Origin: an uncultured bacterium
Lineage (GTDB): Bacteria; SAR324; NAC60-12
NCBI GenBank assembly: GCA_964010765.1
Contig: CAXGMD010000081.1
Location: 1 to 14,119 of the forward strand
DNA length: 14,119 nt
Direction: 5' to 3'
Shown piece by piece: positions 2,322-13,753 of the stretch; within the stretch, counting starts at the first letter, position 1, and every line of letters starts with the position of its first letter. The notes beneath the pieces were generated by a model, which was not told where the DNA came from, did not search any database, and saw only the letters and a program-made list of their open reading frames with translations. The translations under genes were made by a program, and so were the position numbers.

Positions 2322-2484
2322 TTTATCTTCCCACACATTCCGTTAAATCCCTTACGGAGATAAACTCGCTTTCATCACGAAAGCTGAACTCAATGCAAAG
2401 CTTTTTTACACCGAACTGGCGCCCCAAACAAGTTTTGCAATGAATCGGCTTCATTTTCTTTCCGCCCTTGCCTTACGGAGAAAT
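2322..2484 (+). promoter_or_regulatory. putative structured 5' leader of rpoA-like mRNA
   Basis: Four consecutive stem-loops (2338-2359, 2368-2384, 2390-2443, 2455-2483) and an 11-nt direct repeat CCTTACGGAGA (2350-2360 and 2471-2481); the second copy contains the RBS. Confidence 0.4.
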
Positions 2485-3552
2485 ATGAGCAACCTCAAGC
2501 TTTTGTCTGAGGTCAGCCTGCCCCAGAGCCATCAAGCACCTGAAATATATGTTCAGAATTGGACCAACCTTGCGATGCCAAGCAGAATGCGGGTTGATCA
2601 CCGAACTCTCACTTCTTCCTATGGAAGATTCACGATTGAACCACTAGAGCAAGGGTACGCTGTCACTCTGGGCCATTCACTGCGCAAAACCCTACTTGTT
2701 TCCATGAATGGGAGTGCAATTGTGGCTGTGAAGATTGATGGAGTGAAAAAGTCCACAGATGAACTTAAGGGGGTTCAAGGTGGATTGATGAATTTACTAT
2801 TGAATTTAAAGGAAGTTGAGGTCAACCATCAGGATGATGGGATGATTGAGCTTGATCTCACAATTGCTCCAGGTGGTAAATTGGTGGGGAGTGACCTGGC
2901 TGCAAATGGTGAAATCAAAGTCCGCAATCCAAATAAAGAAATTATCCAACTGGAAAAGGGCGTTGGCCTACAATTGAAATTGTATGTCAACAAAGGCCGA
3001 GGATATGTAACCGCTGAAGAGAATGAGAAGCTGAAATTGCCCAAAGGAACGCTGTATCTAGATTCTTACCATTCTCCAATTCGAGAGATTCGATACGAGG
3101 TTGAAAACGCCCGCGTAGATCAGAGGACTGATTACGATCGCCTAATCTTTGAAATCTGGACTTCTGGGACAATCAGCCCCCAGGATAGTCTGGCTAGGGC
3201 GGCTTGGGTCTTAAGAAAACAGTTGGGGCTTTTCATCCATTTTGATGAAAACATTTCCGCAATCCCCATGAATCGCCAGGTCACAGAAGAGCCAGTGCCA
3301 CTGTCTCCAGACTTGTATCGTCCTGTGAGTGAGTTGGAGCTTTCAGTGCGCTCGATCAATTGCCTTCAAAATGCCAAGATTGACTTCATCGGAGAATTGG
3401 TTCAACGAAATGAAAATGAACTGCTTCAAATGAAGAACTTTGGTCGAAAATCATTGAATGAAATCAAAGCAATCCTCATTCAGATGAATCTTTCGTTGGG
3501 AATGGATATCGAAGGATTCGATCCTGACAGCCCTCCTGACAGCGATTTTTGA
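2485..3552 (+). CDS. rpoA: DNA-directed RNA polymerase subunit alpha (divergent, stand-alone copy)
   Basis: Alpha NTD motifs (FTIEPLE.G...TLG..LR, LLNLK, GRGYV, SPI..I.YEVENARV.QRTDYDRL..EIWT.GTISP) and a CTD (ELELSVRSINCL...IGELVQ...KNFGRKSLNEIK). ATG at 2485 with GGAG RBS is preferred over 2440. Confidence 0.93.
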   Translation: MSNLKLLSEVSLPQSHQAPEIYVQNWTNLAMPSRMRVDHRTLTSSYGRFTIEPLEQGYAVTLGHSLRKTLLVSMNGSAIVAVKIDGVKKSTDELKGVQGGLMNLLLNLKEVEVNHQDDGMIELDLTIAPGGKLVGSDLAANGEIKVRNPNKEIIQLEKGVGLQLKLYVNKGRGYVTAEENEKLKLPKGTLYLDSYHSPIREIRYEVENARVDQRTDYDRLIFEIWTSGTISPQDSLARAAWVLRKQLGLFIHFDENISAIPMNRQVTEEPVPLSPDLYRPVSELELSVRSINCLQNAKIDFIGELVQRNENELLQMKNFGRKSLNEIKAILIQMNLSLGMDIEGFDPDSPPDSDF

Positions 3553-7879: not shown

Positions 7880-9324
7880 ATGAAAAATACCAGTTTGACC
7901 AGTCGGCCTGGAAATGGCCTGGCTCGCAGTGAAATTCCGTTGGCTGATTTGATTCATGTTAGCGAAAAAGAGGAACCTCCATCCTCTGGCTTTCAGGCCT
8001 GTTCAAATGGCCAAACAATCTCACCATCCCTTCCTTCAACCAGCCTTAATTTTCAATTCCCATTCAAGCCCAAAAAAGTTTACAGCTTTCCTATCTCCCC
8101 ATCTTCCAAAATTTTCTACACGAACTTTTGGCCAGGAACCTCAGCTGAACAATGGAATGACTGGCAGTGGCAGTTAAAAAACAGAATTCGCTCATTGAAG
8201 GATTTGGAGCGGATTTTCGAGTTGAGTGAAGATGAGAGAGAAGCTGCTTCACAACATCGAGACTCTTTGCCTGTTGGGATCACTCCCTATTATGCCAGTT
8301 TGATGAGCAGGACTGATTCTCAGGATCCTCTGCGAAGAACGCATGTACAGGTAGGCCAGGAATTTATCAGAAGTTATGGTGAAGACGATGATCCTCTAGG
8401 GGAAGATGGCAGTACTGTCGTTGAAGGACTAGTTCACCGTTATCCTGACCGAGTTCTGTTTCTTTCAACAGGGTTTTGTTCAACGTACTGCCGTTATTGT
8501 ACCCGTTCACGCATGGTTGGCAGCACAGGGAAGTATCGTTTTGGAACCGAAAGATGGAACGCAGCCCTGAATTACCTGCGAAGTCACAAGGAGGTCAGGG
8601 ATGTTTTGCTAAGCGGTGGAGACCCACTCACACTCCCAGATGACCGACTCGATTGGTTACTGACCCAACTTCGCTCTATCAAACATATAGAATTTGTGAG
8701 AATTGGTACAAAGTGCCGATCGTCCTACCCCAGAGGATCACTAAGGATTTGGTCAAGATCCTTCGGAAGCACAAACCATGGATGAGTCTTCACTTCACCC
8801 ATCCGACTGAGCTCACTCCTGAAGTCAAAAGATCCACCGCCAGACTAGCAGATGCAGGACTTCCACTCGGGAGCCAGACTGTGCTGCTTGCTGGGATCAA
8901 TGACTCAGTAGAGACACTGAAAAACTTGTTTCATGGTTTGCTGAAGAATCGTGTTCGGCCTTACTACCTGTTCCAATGTGACCCAATCAAAGGTTCTGCA
9001 CATTTCAGAACCCCTGTCGAAAAAGGTTTGGAAATCATCAAAGGGCTACGTGGACATACAACGGGCTATGCAGTTCCAACTTTCGTGATTGATGCACCTG
9101 GTGGTGGAGGGAAAATTCCATTGCTTCCAGAGTATTTATTGGGTCGGGAGGGAGGTGATCTCGTTTTCAATAATTTCGCAGGTCATCAGCATCGGTATCC
9201 TGATCCAGATGGCACTTTGGCAGAAGATCGAATCTTCACAGCTGATAATCTTCCGAGCGAAATAGTTATGAATGGATCAGTCCACACAGACACTTATGGT
9301 GAAGGAGGTGTCCCATGCGCGTAG
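7880..9324 (+). CDS. kamA: KamA family radical SAM/PLP lysine 2,3-aminomutase-like protein, split by a -1 frameshift at about 8710 (about 481 aa when rejoined)
   Basis: ORF 7880 carries WNDWQWQLKNRI, ITPYY, DPLGED, HRYPDRVL, CSTYCRYCTR (CxxxCxxC), LSGGDPL and RIGTK. ORF 8653 continues KVPIVLPQRIT, HFTHP, SQTVLL.GIND, RPYYLFQCD, GLRGHTTG and the PLP lysine motif DAPGGGGKIP. The halves join seamlessly as RIGTKVP. Confidence 0.9.
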
Positions 9325-10364
9325 GTCTTTGTTATGATCTGCGCCAGGATTACTTAGATGCTGGATTTAGTGCAGAGCAAACCGCTGAATTTGATGCCCC
9401 TGAAACAATTGATGCCCTTGAATTTGTCTTGAGAACTAGGGGAGAGCAAGTTGAACGCATTGGCCATTTGCAGTCCCTCGTCAACAAGTTAGCAAGGGGT
9501 AAACGATGGGATTATGTCTTCAGTATCGCTGAGGGAATCTCGGGAATTGCAAGGGAAGCACAGATTCCTGCTCTTTTGGAGGGGTATGGAATCCCCTGTG
9601 TTTTCTCTGACCCAACGATTCTTTCGCTCACGCTTGACAAGGCAGTTACAAAAAGGATTATCCGAGACGCTGGAATTCCCACAGCCGATTACAGAGTTTT
9701 GAGAAATCCTGGTGATCTTGAAGAATTCTCACTTCCGTTCCCCGTTTTTGCGAAACCGCTGGCTGAAGGAACTGGCAAAGGAATTAGTGCCCATTCTTTT
9801 GTCGAGGATCTTGAAGGGTTGACTCTGCAAACCCAAAAACTTTGGCAAAAGTACTCTCAGCCTGTCTTGGTGGAACACTATCTGTCAGGCAGGGAATTCA
9901 CGGTCGGAATATTGGGGCAGGGCAAAAGAAGTCAGGTAATCGGGGTGATGGAAGTCACGTTTAAGGAATCAGCAGAATCCTTTGGCTATTCTTACGAAAA
10001 CAAGGAGCACTACGAAGCAAGAATTCAATATAGCCTAGCAGATGATGCTGAAGCAAAACGGGCAGGTGAAGTTGCTCTTCAAGCTTGGCAGGCTCTTGGT
10101 TGTCGGGATGGGGGGAGAGTAGATATTCGCTCCAATGAATTTGGGAAACCTCATTTTATTGAAGTAAATTCCTTAGCAGGATTACACCCTGAACGTTCTG
10201 ATCTGGTCATTTTAGCTGGCATGGTAGGGTTGAGTTATGCCGATTTGATCGGAAAGATTCTTGATGAATTTTTAACAGATTTGCCAAACAGAAAAATCCC
10301 TCATGGTCTACCCAGGTTGCGTCCGTTCCGCTCTCGAAGTCTGAGGTTCAGAAAAGCATTGTGA
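9315..10364 (+). CDS. Ddl-like ATP-grasp amino-acid ligase 1 (not canonical D-Ala-D-Ala ligase)
   Basis: AEG..G..RE.Q.PALLE, DK..TK, KP..EGTGKGI, E.YLSGREFTVG, GRVDIR, FIEVN motifs; lacks the Ddl N-terminal GGxSxE motif; strong GAAGGAGG RBS; start overlaps the kamA end. Confidence 0.88.
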   Translation: MRVGLCYDLRQDYLDAGFSAEQTAEFDAPETIDALEFVLRTRGEQVERIGHLQSLVNKLARGKRWDYVFSIAEGISGIAREAQIPALLEGYGIPCVFSDPTILSLTLDKAVTKRIIRDAGIPTADYRVLRNPGDLEEFSLPFPVFAKPLAEGTGKGISAHSFVEDLEGLTLQTQKLWQKYSQPVLVEHYLSGREFTVGILGQGKRSQVIGVMEVTFKESAESFGYSYENKEHYEARIQYSLADDAEAKRAGEVALQAWQALGCRDGGRVDIRSNEFGKPHFIEVNSLAGLHPERSDLVILAGMVGLSYADLIGKILDEFLTDLPNRKIPHGLPRLRPFRSRSLRFRKAL

Positions 10365-11380
10365 AAGCGCTGAGAATTGTCTTGGCTTATGGAGAGGTGG
10401 GACTAAACCCCTCTCCAGACCAACAGGACACTTTGAATCAAGTCGATTCCATTCAGTCAGTGCTCAGATCTTTTGGCCATGAAGTTCATCTGCTTGCACT
10501 GACTCTAAATCTTGGATTGGTGGACTCTTTTCTAAGAAGGATCAATCCAGATCTGGTATTCAATCTAGTCGAGTCAATTAACGGGCTTGCCACATTTGTT
10601 CCGACCGTAACAGCTTTCTTTGAAGACTTCGGGCTTCCGCATAACTGTTGTAGTAGTAGCGCACTTAGACTTTCAAGCAACAAGCTTACTAGTCGCAAGG
10701 TTCTTCAAAACGCCTGTGTCCCGCAGGCTCCCATCTTTGGAGAGACGCCCCTACTAACGAAGTCTACTCCATTATGGATTGTTAAGTCTGTTGACGAGCA
10801 TGCATCTTTTGGCATTGATCAAACATCGGTCGTGGATAGTTCCAAGGTAGCCCAAAAGATATCCTCTATAAGTGCCTCATTGGGAGGTAACTGGTTTGCC
10901 GAACAATATCTCCCAGGGAGGGAATTCAACGTTTCAATTCTTGAAACTCTTAAAGGCCCCAAAGTCTTGCCTGTAGCAAAGATCGAGTTTGAAGGGTTCG
11001 AGGGCAACGAGATCCGTTTGGTAGATTATGCCGCTAAGTGGAACACTGAAAGTGAAGCCTTCCTTCGAACACCGAGAAGATTTCCCCAAAAATGCTTCAA
11101 TTCTCAATTATTTGAACAACTTGAAGAGTTATCGCTTCGATGCTGGAACCTTTTCAGCCTGAATGGAGCTGCTCGGGTTGACTTTCGCCTTGATGAAGGG
11201 GGTCAGCCTAGAATCCTTGAGGTTAATGCCAACCCGTGTCTAAGCCCTGGTGCAGGCTTCTCAGCCTCGGCAGATCAAGCAGGAATCAGTTTCCAAGAGC
11301 TGATTGAACAGCTTGTTGAAGCTGGGCTTAGAAATTCCTCAAACTTCCATTTTCCCGTCATCACTCAGAAAAATGCTTAA
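10361..11380 (+). CDS. Ddl-like ATP-grasp amino-acid ligase 2
   Basis: LVFNLVES, NK..S, IVKS..EHASFGI, EQYLPGREFNV, DY.AKW, ARVDFR, LEVNANP motifs; GTGA start/stop overlap with ligase 1. Confidence 0.88.
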   Translation: MKALRIVLAYGEVGLNPSPDQQDTLNQVDSIQSVLRSFGHEVHLLALTLNLGLVDSFLRRINPDLVFNLVESINGLATFVPTVTAFFEDFGLPHNCCSSSALRLSSNKLTSRKVLQNACVPQAPIFGETPLLTKSTPLWIVKSVDEHASFGIDQTSVVDSSKVAQKISSISASLGGNWFAEQYLPGREFNVSILETLKGPKVLPVAKIEFEGFEGNEIRLVDYAAKWNTESEAFLRTPRRFPQKCFNSQLFEQLEELSLRCWNLFSLNGAARVDFRLDEGGQPRILEVNANPCLSPGAGFSASADQAGISFQELIEQLVEAGLRNSSNFHFPVITQKNA

Positions 11381-11425
11381 AGCCCTGATAGCAAAAAACC
11401 CCAAGGATGGACGTGGCGAAAAGTT

Positions 11426-11887
11426 TTGAATTCTGATGACGTCGGCAAGATCACCGATTTGGTTCAGGAATGTGGAAACTTTCGTGAGGATGAGATTGAA
11501 ATCGCTACTGAACTTGTTCAGGAGCATCTCAACAAAGGTGTGTCCAGCGGTTATGAGTTTCTGCTGTTAGAAAAAGCCGATCTTTTAGGGGCATTTGCTT
11601 GTTGGGGACCCATTCCAGGTTCTGTCGGAAGTTACGATCTTTATTGGCTGGCTGTTGCACCAGACTTCCAAGGTGCTGGATTCGGAACTTTGCTTTTCAA
11701 GGAGAGCATCCAGCAGATTTTTTCTCAAGGCGGTCGACAAGTTTTCATAGAGACATCAAGCCGGGATAATTATCTCTCTGCACAACGATTTTACCAGCGA
11801 CAGGGTGCTGAATTGATGGCTCGGCTGCCAGATTTTTACCAAATCGATGATGACAAGCTGATTTTCTGCGTCAGGCAATTGACCTAA
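11426..11887 (+). CDS. GNAT family N-acetyltransferase (true start uncertain; the frame is open from 11381)
   Basis: Acetyl-CoA binding motif A YDLYWLAVAPDFQGAGFGTLL and motif B IETSS...AQRFY..QG; last gene of the kamA operon. Confidence 0.88.
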   Translation: MNSDDVGKITDLVQECGNFREDEIEIATELVQEHLNKGVSSGYEFLLLEKADLLGAFACWGPIPGSVGSYDLYWLAVAPDFQGAGFGTLLFKESIQQIFSQGGRQVFIETSSRDNYLSAQRFYQRQGAELMARLPDFYQIDDDKLIFCVRQLT

Positions 11888-12228
11888 ATGCTAATGCTTG
11901 AAAACATCCGCCACAGAACACAATTTTGATTCAGGGTTAAAAGTTCCCGTTTTGAGGAAATTTAGGGATGGAGCAAAATTTTTTCAAAAGAATGAATCTC
12001 AGCCTCCTTTCAGTAGATCTCGAACTCATCTGAAATTTTTTGGCCCATAAAACGTACAGTTTATCAATTGGTCAGATAGCTTGTTTAGCTTTCCAATTCA
12101 GGTTACAAATTGATTGAGATGATTTTTCACATCTATGGCATTGACATAATTCTAGGAAAGTACGTTAAATTGTTTTTCGCATGCCATCTGGTATCAGATT
12201 TACCCCAAATGATGTAAGGGAGAGCAAC

Positions 12229-12864
12229 ATGAAACTTTATGCAGATCCGATCACGGTCAACTGTCGAAAAGTTCTCGCGGGATTCAAACTGATGGGCATT
12301 CCCTATGAACGAATCCACGTAGATTATTTTAAGTCGGAGCAATTGAATGAGGACTTCATCAAAATCAATCCAAATGCAGCTCTGCCTGCCTTAGTTGATG
12401 ACGATTTGGTATTGTGGGAGTCCAACAGCTTGTTGCAATATGCCGCAGACAAGTACGGCAAGTCGGAATTTTACCCGACTGATTTGAAAATCCGGGCTGA
12501 TATCAACAGGTGGTTACTCTGGGAGGCATCCGCATGGTTCGGGTCCTGTTACGTCTACGTGGTTGAAAATTGCGTGAAGCCCGTCTTGGATTCGAGCCCC
12601 GATCCAAAAATTCTAGAAGATCAAGACCCCAAGTTCCATAAGTTGGCTGGGATTCTTGACAATCGTCTTGGGCAAAATGAGTGGATTGCTGGAAATGGCC
12701 CGACCATCGCCGATATTGCCTGCGCTGCACCAATGCACCTTCATGGGTGGCAAAAACTGCCTTTGGATCAGCATGCAAACATTCGACGCTGGATGACCCA
12801 GAACGTGGAGCAACTTCCAGCCTGGAAAGAAACTCACGTTGGAGAGGGATTTACTCTCAGCTGA
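12229..12864 (+). CDS. glutathione S-transferase family protein
   Basis: MKLYADPITVNCRKV, NPNAALPAL, WESNSLLQY, RADINRWL and PTIADIA motifs. ATG at 12229 with AAGGGAG RBS is preferred over 12181. Confidence 0.93.
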   Translation: MKLYADPITVNCRKVLAGFKLMGIPYERIHVDYFKSEQLNEDFIKINPNAALPALVDDDLVLWESNSLLQYAADKYGKSEFYPTDLKIRADINRWLLWEASAWFGSCYVYVVENCVKPVLDSSPDPKILEDQDPKFHKLAGILDNRLGQNEWIAGNGPTIADIACAAPMHLHGWQKLPLDQHANIRRWMTQNVEQLPAWKETHVGEGFTLS

Positions 12865-12904
12865 TTTGATAATTTTCATAAAAGTCGATTACTCACGGTG
12901 AACC

Positions 12905-13753
12905 ATGCCCAACATTCCAGAATCTCCCGCTAAAGTACTGGGTCAAATCAATTACACAGTTGATAACGGTAAGGAGCCATCCTACTACTTCTATGTGCCT
13001 GAAGAGGAAGTAGAGATGAACCCGCCTGGAACCGATGTACACGATGTGGAAGTTCAAAATGGTTGGCCCATGGCTAACCAGTTTTCTGTGGATGAAATTG
13101 GATTCGAATTACACGAATTCATAGATGATTTCAGAGGTTTTCATGATGATCAACTGGTCGTCGATGGATTCTATCCACAAGTAATCGACTTTGTGAAAGA
13201 GCATACCGGGGCAAAACGAGTCGTGGTTTTTGACCATACGATTCGCAGAAGGATGTCAAAGGAGCAGATGGAAGGGAACGTCCAAGACGAAAAGTCTGTG
13301 GTCAATCGACCTGCAGTCCTCTTGGTTCATAGTGACTACACTCCTAGTTCCGGACCACAAAGAGTCCGAGATATCATGAAAGATGAGGCCGAGGAATTAC
13401 TCAAAGGACGAGTCGCATTTTTCAATGTTTGGAAACCATTCTGTGAAAAGGTGGAAGAACTTCCTTTGGCCATGTGTGATGCCAGAACTTCCACAGATGA
13501 GGACTTCCTTACAATGAAGTTGAAGTATCGGGAACGGACAGGGGAGATTTTTGTGCTACGACATTCTCCTAACCACGAGTGGTATTATTTCCCTTGGATG
13601 GAATCGAAGCATGCTATTCTTCTGAAGACCTATGACTCAGAGACTGATGGACGAGCACGATTTACTGGGCATAGCGCCTTCGAAGATCCAAATTCTCCAG
13701 CCAGCCCTCAGCAACGAGAAAGCATCGAAATTAGAACAATGGCTTTTTTCTGA
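12905..13753 (+). CDS. CmcJ/NvfI/AsaB-like Fe(II)/2-oxoglutarate-type oxidoreductase
   Basis: GFEL, FDHTIRR, VHSDYT (HxD), NVWKP, PLAMCDA, WYYFP.M, LLKTYDS, HSAFEDP (distal His) and RESIEIR are the characteristic motif series of this family. Confidence 0.85.
   Translation: MPNIPESPAKVLGQINYTVDNGKEPSYYFYVPEEEVEMNPPGTDVHDVEVQNGWPMANQFSVDEIGFELHEFIDDFRGFHDDQLVVDGFYPQVIDFVKEHTGAKRVVVFDHTIRRRMSKEQMEGNVQDEKSVVNRPAVLLVHSDYTPSSGPQRVRDIMKDEAEELLKGRVAFFNVWKPFCEKVEELPLAMCDARTSTDEDFLTMKLKYRERTGEIFVLRHSPNHEWYYFPWMESKHAILLKTYDSETDGRARFTGHSAFEDPNSPASPQQRESIEIRTMAFF

Follow-up and report, generated by a model that had tools for sequence, protein, structure and literature searches.

A conserved aminomutase–ligase–acetyltransferase cassette, probably for an N-acetylated beta-lysine amide or peptide, and its lesioned copy in a marine SAR324 population

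Described systems closest to the cassette

AblA and AblB together produce N-epsilon-acetyl-beta-lysine in methanogens and some bacteria, with kamA-yodP as the corresponding pair in Bacillus subtilis. The cassette described here also holds a KamA-type aminomutase and a GNAT acetyltransferase, with two ATP-grasp ligases (lig1 and lig2) placed between them. It is located at positions 7880–11887 of a 14,119-bp stretch of DNA (hereafter the window), which is the whole of contig C81 (CAXGMD010000081.1) in the metagenome-assembled genome (MAG) GCA_964010765.1 of an uncultured SAR324 bacterium. This assembly of 266 contigs is 92% complete, and the sequencing runs that hold window DNA are marine metagenomes. 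A first-pass annotation had proposed that four co-oriented genes specify a ribosome-independent pathway to an N-acetylated peptide containing beta-lysine. Such a product is probably still the best reading of the cassette as a family, although the copy in the window carries two genuine lesions.

The likeness to AblA/AblB extends to the lysine-binding residues of the aminomutase, which are kept, and to AblA as the best-matching model. The differences are the two intervening ligases, a GNAT of 153 amino acids (aa) that has no AblB match, and a KamA that scores under the AblA equivalog cut-off. A second parallel is Ngg of the NAGGN (N-acetylglutaminylglutamine amide) osmolyte pathway, a bifunctional GNAT and ATP-grasp dipeptide synthase. 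Ngg makes an N-acetylated small peptide without a ribosome or a nonribosomal peptide synthetase (NRPS), and here too an ATP-grasp ligase and a GNAT are found in one protein, the lig2::GNAT fusion described below. The domain order and the ATP-grasp subfamily differ, the cassette has no AsnO-type amidotransferase, and its beta-amino acid would come from a radical-SAM mutase.

The pyrrolysine enzymes PylB and PylC are a radical-SAM lysine mutase and a Ddl-like ATP-grasp ligase. The predicted logic is the same, with radical-SAM isomerisation of lysine followed by ligation through an acyl-phosphate, whereas the cassette has a KamA-family mutase, no PylD, and an extra ligase and a GNAT. No PylC match was listed for the cassette ligases among the NCBIfam models. 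Both ligases belong to the fold family of D-alanine–D-alanine ligase (Ddl) itself and have its catalytic Lys, Arg, Asp, Glu and Asn, but their scores fall below the Ddl cut-offs and the position of DdlB Leu282 has been replaced. The GNAT has a close homologue in PDB 2R7H (GNAT residues 9–148, E 6.9e-33), which is entered as a “putative D-alanine N-acetyltransferase of GNAT family”. This name is a structural-genomics label with no function shown, and the one open-access paper citing the entry concerns, at least in its excerpted text, an unrelated toxin.

Gene order, fusions and predicted chemistry

Five open reading frames (ORFs), all on the forward strand, span the interval (7880–8785, 8653–9324, 9315–10364, 10361–11380 and 11426–11887). 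Pfam and NCBIfam resolve the first two as the halves of one KamA-family radical-SAM aminomutase, and the others as two ligases with the Dala_Dala_lig_C domain and a small GNAT. The features are as follows.

7880–8713, forward strand: N-terminal part of kamA, the radical-SAM half, which has CxxxCxxC and is extended by about 85 residues at its N-terminus; matches residues 12–201 of the lysine 2,3-aminomutase structure 2A5H (E 4.6e-52), with the Cys triad and a counterpart of Arg134; the frame continues to a stop at 8783–8785
8708–8709, forward strand: site of a 1-nucleotide (nt) deletion in kamA; AGC in the intact allele, A-C in the window
8713–9324, forward strand: C-terminal part of kamA in the -1 frame, the half with the pyridoxal phosphate (PLP) lysine and the substrate-binding residues; matches residues 204–368 of 2A5H (E 2.7e-60); equivalents of Asp293, Asp330 and Lys337 are kept
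9315–10364, forward strand: lig1, an intact Ddl-family ATP-grasp ligase of 349 aa (Dala_Dala_lig_C, E 4e-26)
10361–11380, forward strand: lig2, a diverged ATP-grasp ligase, likewise of the Ddl family; corresponds to the ligase domain of a lig2::GNAT fusion gene that is interrupted here
11378–11380, forward strand: TAA stop that cuts the linker between the two domains; intact relatives have CAA (Gln)
11381–11425, forward strand: linker of the former fusion, 15 codons in frame, with the same translation as in the 508-aa relatives
11426–11887, forward strand: GNAT acetyltransferase domain, homologous to PDB 2R7H, 153 aa from a TTG codon without a convincing ribosome-binding site

The overlaps given in the first-pass annotation are exact. 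The lig1 ATG (9315) lies 10 nt inside the end of kamA, whose TAG stop occupies 9322–9324. The GTGA at 10361–10364 supplies the lig2 start and the lig1 stop together, and the frame is open directly after 11380. The adjacency, order and shared strand of the four genes were also described correctly, but kamA is split by the loss of 1 nt and the GNAT stands in the lig2 frame behind the TAA. The cassette here is three genes with two lesions and not four intact genes.

The same annotation had asked whether the gene order is conserved, and it is. A set of 157 related loci was assembled, with 73 from species genomes, 80 from metagenomes and four from relatives; every one is consistent with the order kamA, lig1, lig2, optional insert, GNAT. 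As the same order recurs in 157/157 loci, the gene grouping is far beyond chance. Plain cassettes account for 61 loci, while the insert between lig2 and GNAT is a small membrane-protein gene in 51 and a GNAT-like plus histone-deacetylase-family gene in five. The remaining 40 show part of the order only, most being cut by contig ends. Where 1.5 kb or more of sequence precedes lig1, kamA is present (121/121 loci); where 3.2 kb or more follows lig2, the GNAT is present in 94/95 loci, L076 being the exception.

The hosts fall into at least seven named groups: Smithella/Syntrophaceae, Micropepsaceae, Bdellovibrionota, KSB1, Phycisphaerales, Prolixibacteraceae and Gammaproteobacteria. At E ≤ 1e-30, lig1 matches 650 representative clusters. 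Within the order, lig1 orthologues (E ≤ 1e-100) occur in eight of 41 genomes, including that of the window (G000), and a second ligase lies beside each. The membrane-protein gene found in 51 loci, all Smithella-like, encodes a hydrophobic protein of about 116 aa with a weak NCBIfam match only (L023:8055–8405 and 50 others). It could be a transporter of the product.

Gene fusions connect the same members. lig2::GNAT fusions occur at four loci (L018, L083, L084, L098) and in protein P0001. A scan of 31 long or odd-length hits found two Ddl-type domains in 12 proteins and KamA with lig1 in three, in the order KamA–lig1 in P0077 and P0203 and lig1–KamA in P0210. Taken pairwise, these fusions tie the four predicted activities together. 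Apparent lig1–lig2 fusions in L085 and L016, both of high GC content, were rejected; their first halves are out-of-frame Arg-rich sequence and represent ORF-caller artefacts. Protein P0162 (980 aa) joins leucine-rich repeats to a lig1-like ATP-grasp domain.

The GNAT-like plus histone-deacetylase-family (PF00850) module between lig2 and GNAT was found at L073:4136–5965, L085:8606–10126, L089, L102 and L103. In P0002–P0004 it is fused to the cassette GNAT, resulting in a single GNAT–deacetylase–GNAT chain of 754–757 aa. The presence of these predicted opposing activities in one protein suggests that it acts on the acetyl groups of two distinct amines.

The aminomutase belongs to the KamA family (TIGR00238, cut-off 199.2 bits), as the N-terminal part alone scores 199.8–200.7 bits and the intact sister allele 349.1 bits. 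The window sequence is not a member as one continuous ORF, the deletion after 8708 having placed it in two frames. Among NCBIfam models, the AblA-type lysine 2,3-aminomutase (TIGR03820) fits best, and the lysine model outscores those for glutamate and arginine. The two halves of the window KamA (207.7 + 233.9 bits) stay below the equivalog cut-off of that model (525.4 bits). Alignment to 2A5H places the CxxxCxxC motif and the equivalents of R134, D293, D330 and K337 in the protein. In the solved enzyme, the two Asp residues bind the epsilon-ammonium of lysine, and K337 is the PLP lysine.

Both ligases are well above the PF07478 gathering score of 24 (lig1 92.2 bits, lig2 75.3 bits) and far under the cut-offs of the two Ddl models. 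Against TIGR01205 (245.65 bits), lig1 scores 110.9–111 and lig2 76.4–76.9; against NF002378 (243 bits), the values are 128.8 and 93. The true Ddl of this genome is encoded on another contig (G000:C14) and scores 335.2 bits with TIGR01205. Invariant residues are K230, R268, D270, E283 and N285 in lig1, and K226, R272, D274, E287 and N289 in lig2. In DdlB numbering, lig1 keeps the equivalents of E15, K215, R255, D257, E270 and N272, and lig2 the same set minus E15. The position of Leu282 is an invariant Asp in lig1 and an invariant Gly in lig2. By these family scores, lig1 and lig2 are predicted not to be cell-wall Ddl enzymes. The ESM Atlas gives them only generic names of the “D-alanine--D-alanine ligase family” type.

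The only models that match the GNAT at E ≤ 0.001 are rimI, N-Ac-Glu-synth and two generic ones. The AblB model is absent at this threshold, and no AblB-type acetyltransferase was found beside the aminomutase. The best named matches are protein N-terminal acetyltransferases, RimI (1.1e-9) and Naa30.

In the proposed pathway, the KamA-type lysine 2,3-aminomutase would convert lysine to beta-lysine. The ligase lig1, which is fused to KamA in other lineages, would use beta-lysine as the amino-acid donor and form an ATP-dependent amide bond to an amine, possibly a cationic one. A further amide bond would be formed by lig2. The small GNAT, fused to lig2 in this lineage, would then N-acetylate a remaining free amine and, where the deacetylase modules are present, the acetyl group may be removed or cycled. 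This would yield a small N-acetylated amide or peptide containing beta-lysine. Synthesis of such a compound independently of the ribosome is probably the best reading of the cassette, because the order is conserved, the activities are fused, the lysine-binding residues are kept and the ligases are not cell-wall Ddl. The order, fusions and residues partly support the first-pass proposal for the cassette in general; for the copy in the window it fares worse, as the aminomutase is frameshifted throughout the population and this copy probably makes nothing.

Three points weigh against this pathway. All of its chemistry, at each step, is inferred from family membership; even the intact KamA allele, in L098, stays below the AblA equivalog cut-off (459.8 against 525.4 bits); and Smithella and its kin dominate the 157 loci, so that the counts are not independent.

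Two other targets for the beta-lysine were weighed. It is highly improbable that KamA feeds beta-lysine to EpmA for the modification of elongation factor P (EF-P), with the ligases as incidental neighbours. The genome does contain an EpmA-like gene that scores 290.3 bits, just above the cut-off of 286.9 bits, and a separate EpmB was not detected. The EpmA-like gene is present in nine of nine genomes of the genus, however, and a KamA-family gene in only two of the nine; kamA is tied to the ligases in all 121 informative loci and fused to lig1 in some lineages; and the intact allele misses the EpmB cut-off (262.6 against 369.3 bits). Modification of a macromolecule is a less remote alternative, but still an unlikely one. 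Here a protein carboxylate, a cell-wall unit or a lipid would receive the beta-lysine, and the GNAT and deacetylase would set the acetylation state. Ligases that act on macromolecules are known (RimK, LysX and the D-Asp ligase), and protein-modifying ATP-grasp enzymes are well described. RimI and Naa30, the nearest named relatives of the GNAT, acetylate protein N-termini, and histone-deacetylase-family domains accompany the cassette in five of 157 loci and in three long proteins. On the other side, the cassette has no conserved candidate gene for an acceptor protein, and both ligases are of the Ddl type and not of the RimK/LysX type. In addition, lig1 keeps the Glu that in Ddl binds the free amino group of the small donor, and the patchy presence of the cassette within the order fits an accessory metabolite. 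The EpmA (genX)-like gene of this genome is located at G000:C46:26908–27831, and its relatives in the genus score at or near the cut-off.

With the N-acetylated beta-lysine amide or peptide retained as the preferred product, a broader proposal can be made tentatively; it is possible, but falls short of likely. The cassettes would make an undescribed class of N-acetylated beta-lysine oligoamides, independently of NRPS and ribosome, in hundreds of lineages, most of them anaerobic. The aminomutase, the first ligase, the second ligase and the GNAT would operate as a channelled line, which would explain the fusions in that order. Acetyl groups would be cycled by the GNAT–deacetylase–GNAT proteins, and the fusion of this genus would have been split twice. 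No description of the kamA-lig1-lig2-GNAT cassette or of its product was found in open-access papers or bioRxiv, subscription journals being outside the scope of the search.

Two lesions and the state of the window copy

The first lesion lies in kamA. The intact allele reads GGC AGC AAA GTG (Gly-Ser-Lys-Val), which matches the RIGS...PVVLPQ strand of the solved aminomutase, and the window aligns to it as GGT A-C AAA GTG. The second lesion becomes visible when 10361–11887 is translated in one frame, giving the ligase, a single TAA, 15 linker codons and the GNAT. Relatives at 95–97% identity have CAA in place of the TAA and encode one lig2::GNAT protein of 508 aa with an otherwise identical linker. 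TAA is an ordinary stop codon in this genome, ending for example the thiolase gene. The undamaged arrangement is represented by L098, a metagenome contig with 97.4% identity over 4.3 kb, which has a base after 8708 and encodes thiolase, a KamA of 481 aa, a lig1 of 349 aa, the 508-aa lig2::GNAT, GST and CmcJ.

Sequencing or assembly error as the source of the frameshift and the stop is the most improbable of all the alternatives considered. What speaks for it is that the genome is a MAG in 266 pieces. Both lesions are genuine and fixed in the species-level population, because they recur in 5/5 independent contigs at 99.4–99.9% identity (the window, L095, L096, L097 and L100) and the deletion is found in DNA contigs of two more studies. 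These latter (Logan contigs of runs X9 and X12) match across the site, and the base is likewise absent. The exact 301-aa truncated KamA product is encoded on 41 contigs and the exact 153-aa GNAT on 64, from several sources, and the intact 481-aa and 508-aa forms fall in the same 90% clusters as the truncated products. The intact allele, with the extra base at 8708, is also carried by contigs of runs X14 and X15, two salt-marsh RNA libraries (97–98% identity across the cluster), which as RNA-library contigs are no proof of transcription.

Further lesions are private to single members of the clade. L095 has a 5-nt duplication in kamA, and L100 has lost 1 nt in lig1. L097 has a second stop, TAG, four codons 5′ of the TAA, and its conserved TPYY motif has Asp in place of a Tyr. 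In G003, a different species of the genus (95.5% identity), the linker carries a TAG without the TAA, and at least two different nonsense codons therefore arose within five codons of one linker. By comparison with the intact relatives, the ancestral state of this genus appears to be a lig2::GNAT fusion, which was split by nonsense codons at two sites. The kamA of G003 lies on a separate contig (L195 = G003:C469) and is intact at the deletion site; its last 35 or so residues and the downstream DNA are unlike the window. It was left out of further comparison, as this divergence may reflect a chimeric contig or a recombinant. In a deltaproteobacterial MAG (L094:4600–8600), the entire cassette is present in many short fragments, an independent and far more advanced decay.

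It is moderately likely that the window holds a copy of the widespread cassette, with its proposed beta-lysine amide pathway, that has recently been or is currently being inactivated and probably no longer makes beta-lysine. The 92%-complete assembly yielded no KamA-family gene besides the broken kamA, and for this reason the copy is most likely without beta-lysine production. On the window branch, lig2 has accumulated 17 non-synonymous against 14 synonymous changes, some of them at near-invariant positions, where Gly96 has become Cys and the NPCLSPDAGF motif has Gly for its Asp. This excess of non-synonymous change was counted in favour of inactivation.

Several observations pull the other way. 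Segregating codons within the frameshift clade number 19 synonymous to 29 non-synonymous in the cluster and 17 to 18 in the flanks (Fisher p = 0.50), and the patterns of single-nucleotide polymorphism give no clear sign of relaxed selection. The departure from neutrality varies with the assumed neutral ratio (P = 0.009 or 0.10). The flanking GST gene of L100 has a 10-nt insertion too, and some of the private indels may therefore be assembly noise. Most lineages encode lig2 and GNAT separately, so that the TAA is not necessarily inactivating, and the TAG of G003 in the same linker looks like tolerated fission as opposed to random decay. The location of both stops exactly in the inter-domain linker likewise suggests that the split of the fusion is tolerated and not random. 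Under a uniform model, the chance of two independent stops in the linker is roughly (35/508)^2, about 0.5%.

These points lend weight to a copy that is still functional, in which the TAA turns the fusion into two genes and kamA is rescued by low-level -1 slippage at ACA-AAG, giving ...IGTKVPIV..., or by assembly of the two pieces. The ORFs 3′ of both lesions are otherwise open and conserved; the two different stops of the window clade and G003 spare the domains; the synonymous to non-synonymous ratios within the clade do not differ between cluster and flanks; a split lig2 and GNAT is the arrangement of most other lineages; and A-AAG is a shift-prone motif. Nevertheless, a copy still at work in this way is unlikely, though a serious alternative. 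The site has no classical slippery heptamer, the P-site ACA is unable to re-pair, and no stimulatory RNA structure lies 3′ of it. As positions 8714–8800 fold no better than shuffled sequences (z = 0.18), a programmed frameshift was not adopted. The GNAT part lacks a good Shine–Dalgarno sequence, its sole in-frame start being the TTG at 11426 with the nearest AAGGA about 17 nt upstream. Members of the clade carry further lesions, and in the intact sister allele the extra base is simply present. Ongoing or recent inactivation thus remains the favoured account of the window copy.

Surrounding genes and biological meaning

The genes flanking the cassette encode a thiolase, a VTT-domain membrane protein, a GST and a CmcJ/NvfI-family oxidoreductase. 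Pfam and NCBIfam searches of these flanks found no lysine-fermentation, mur or efp genes, in agreement with the first-pass argument that no such gene in the window explains kamA otherwise. The GST-family gene and the CmcJ/NvfI-family oxidoreductase gene (12181–13753, forward strand) lie 3′ of the cassette in this genus only (G003 and L098), and they are outside the conserved unit. No Rfam match was found anywhere in the window, and promoter- and terminator-like sites are no commoner in it than in shuffled sequence.

The window also contains a second full-length rpoA (2440–3552, forward strand), which scores 303.6 bits, over the cut-off. It is located between a dienelactone hydrolase and a phytase-like gene, without ribosomal-protein context, and is extended by about 40 residues at the N-terminus. 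The other rpoA of this genome is on contig C58 and scores 311.3 bits.

To the picture of the cassette, this window adds a copy whose lesions are fixed in a population and are not sequencing errors, a fusion split at two linker sites, and the recurrent deacetylase modules. If the proposed pathway is correct, the beta-lysine compound made by this widespread, conserved operon is one that no open-access paper searched describes. This would be a new use of beta-lysine beside the osmolyte acetyl-beta-lysine, the modification of EF-P and antibiotics. As the window copy is broken in nature, the pathway is better tested with an intact allele, from the L098 lineage or a cultured carrier, than with a repaired version of this copy. 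Under the broader and more tentative proposal of a channelled oligoamide pathway, the split lig2::GNAT would be a gene fission caught in progress. The paired lesions represent a dated natural experiment on pathway loss or gene fission in an abundant marine lineage.

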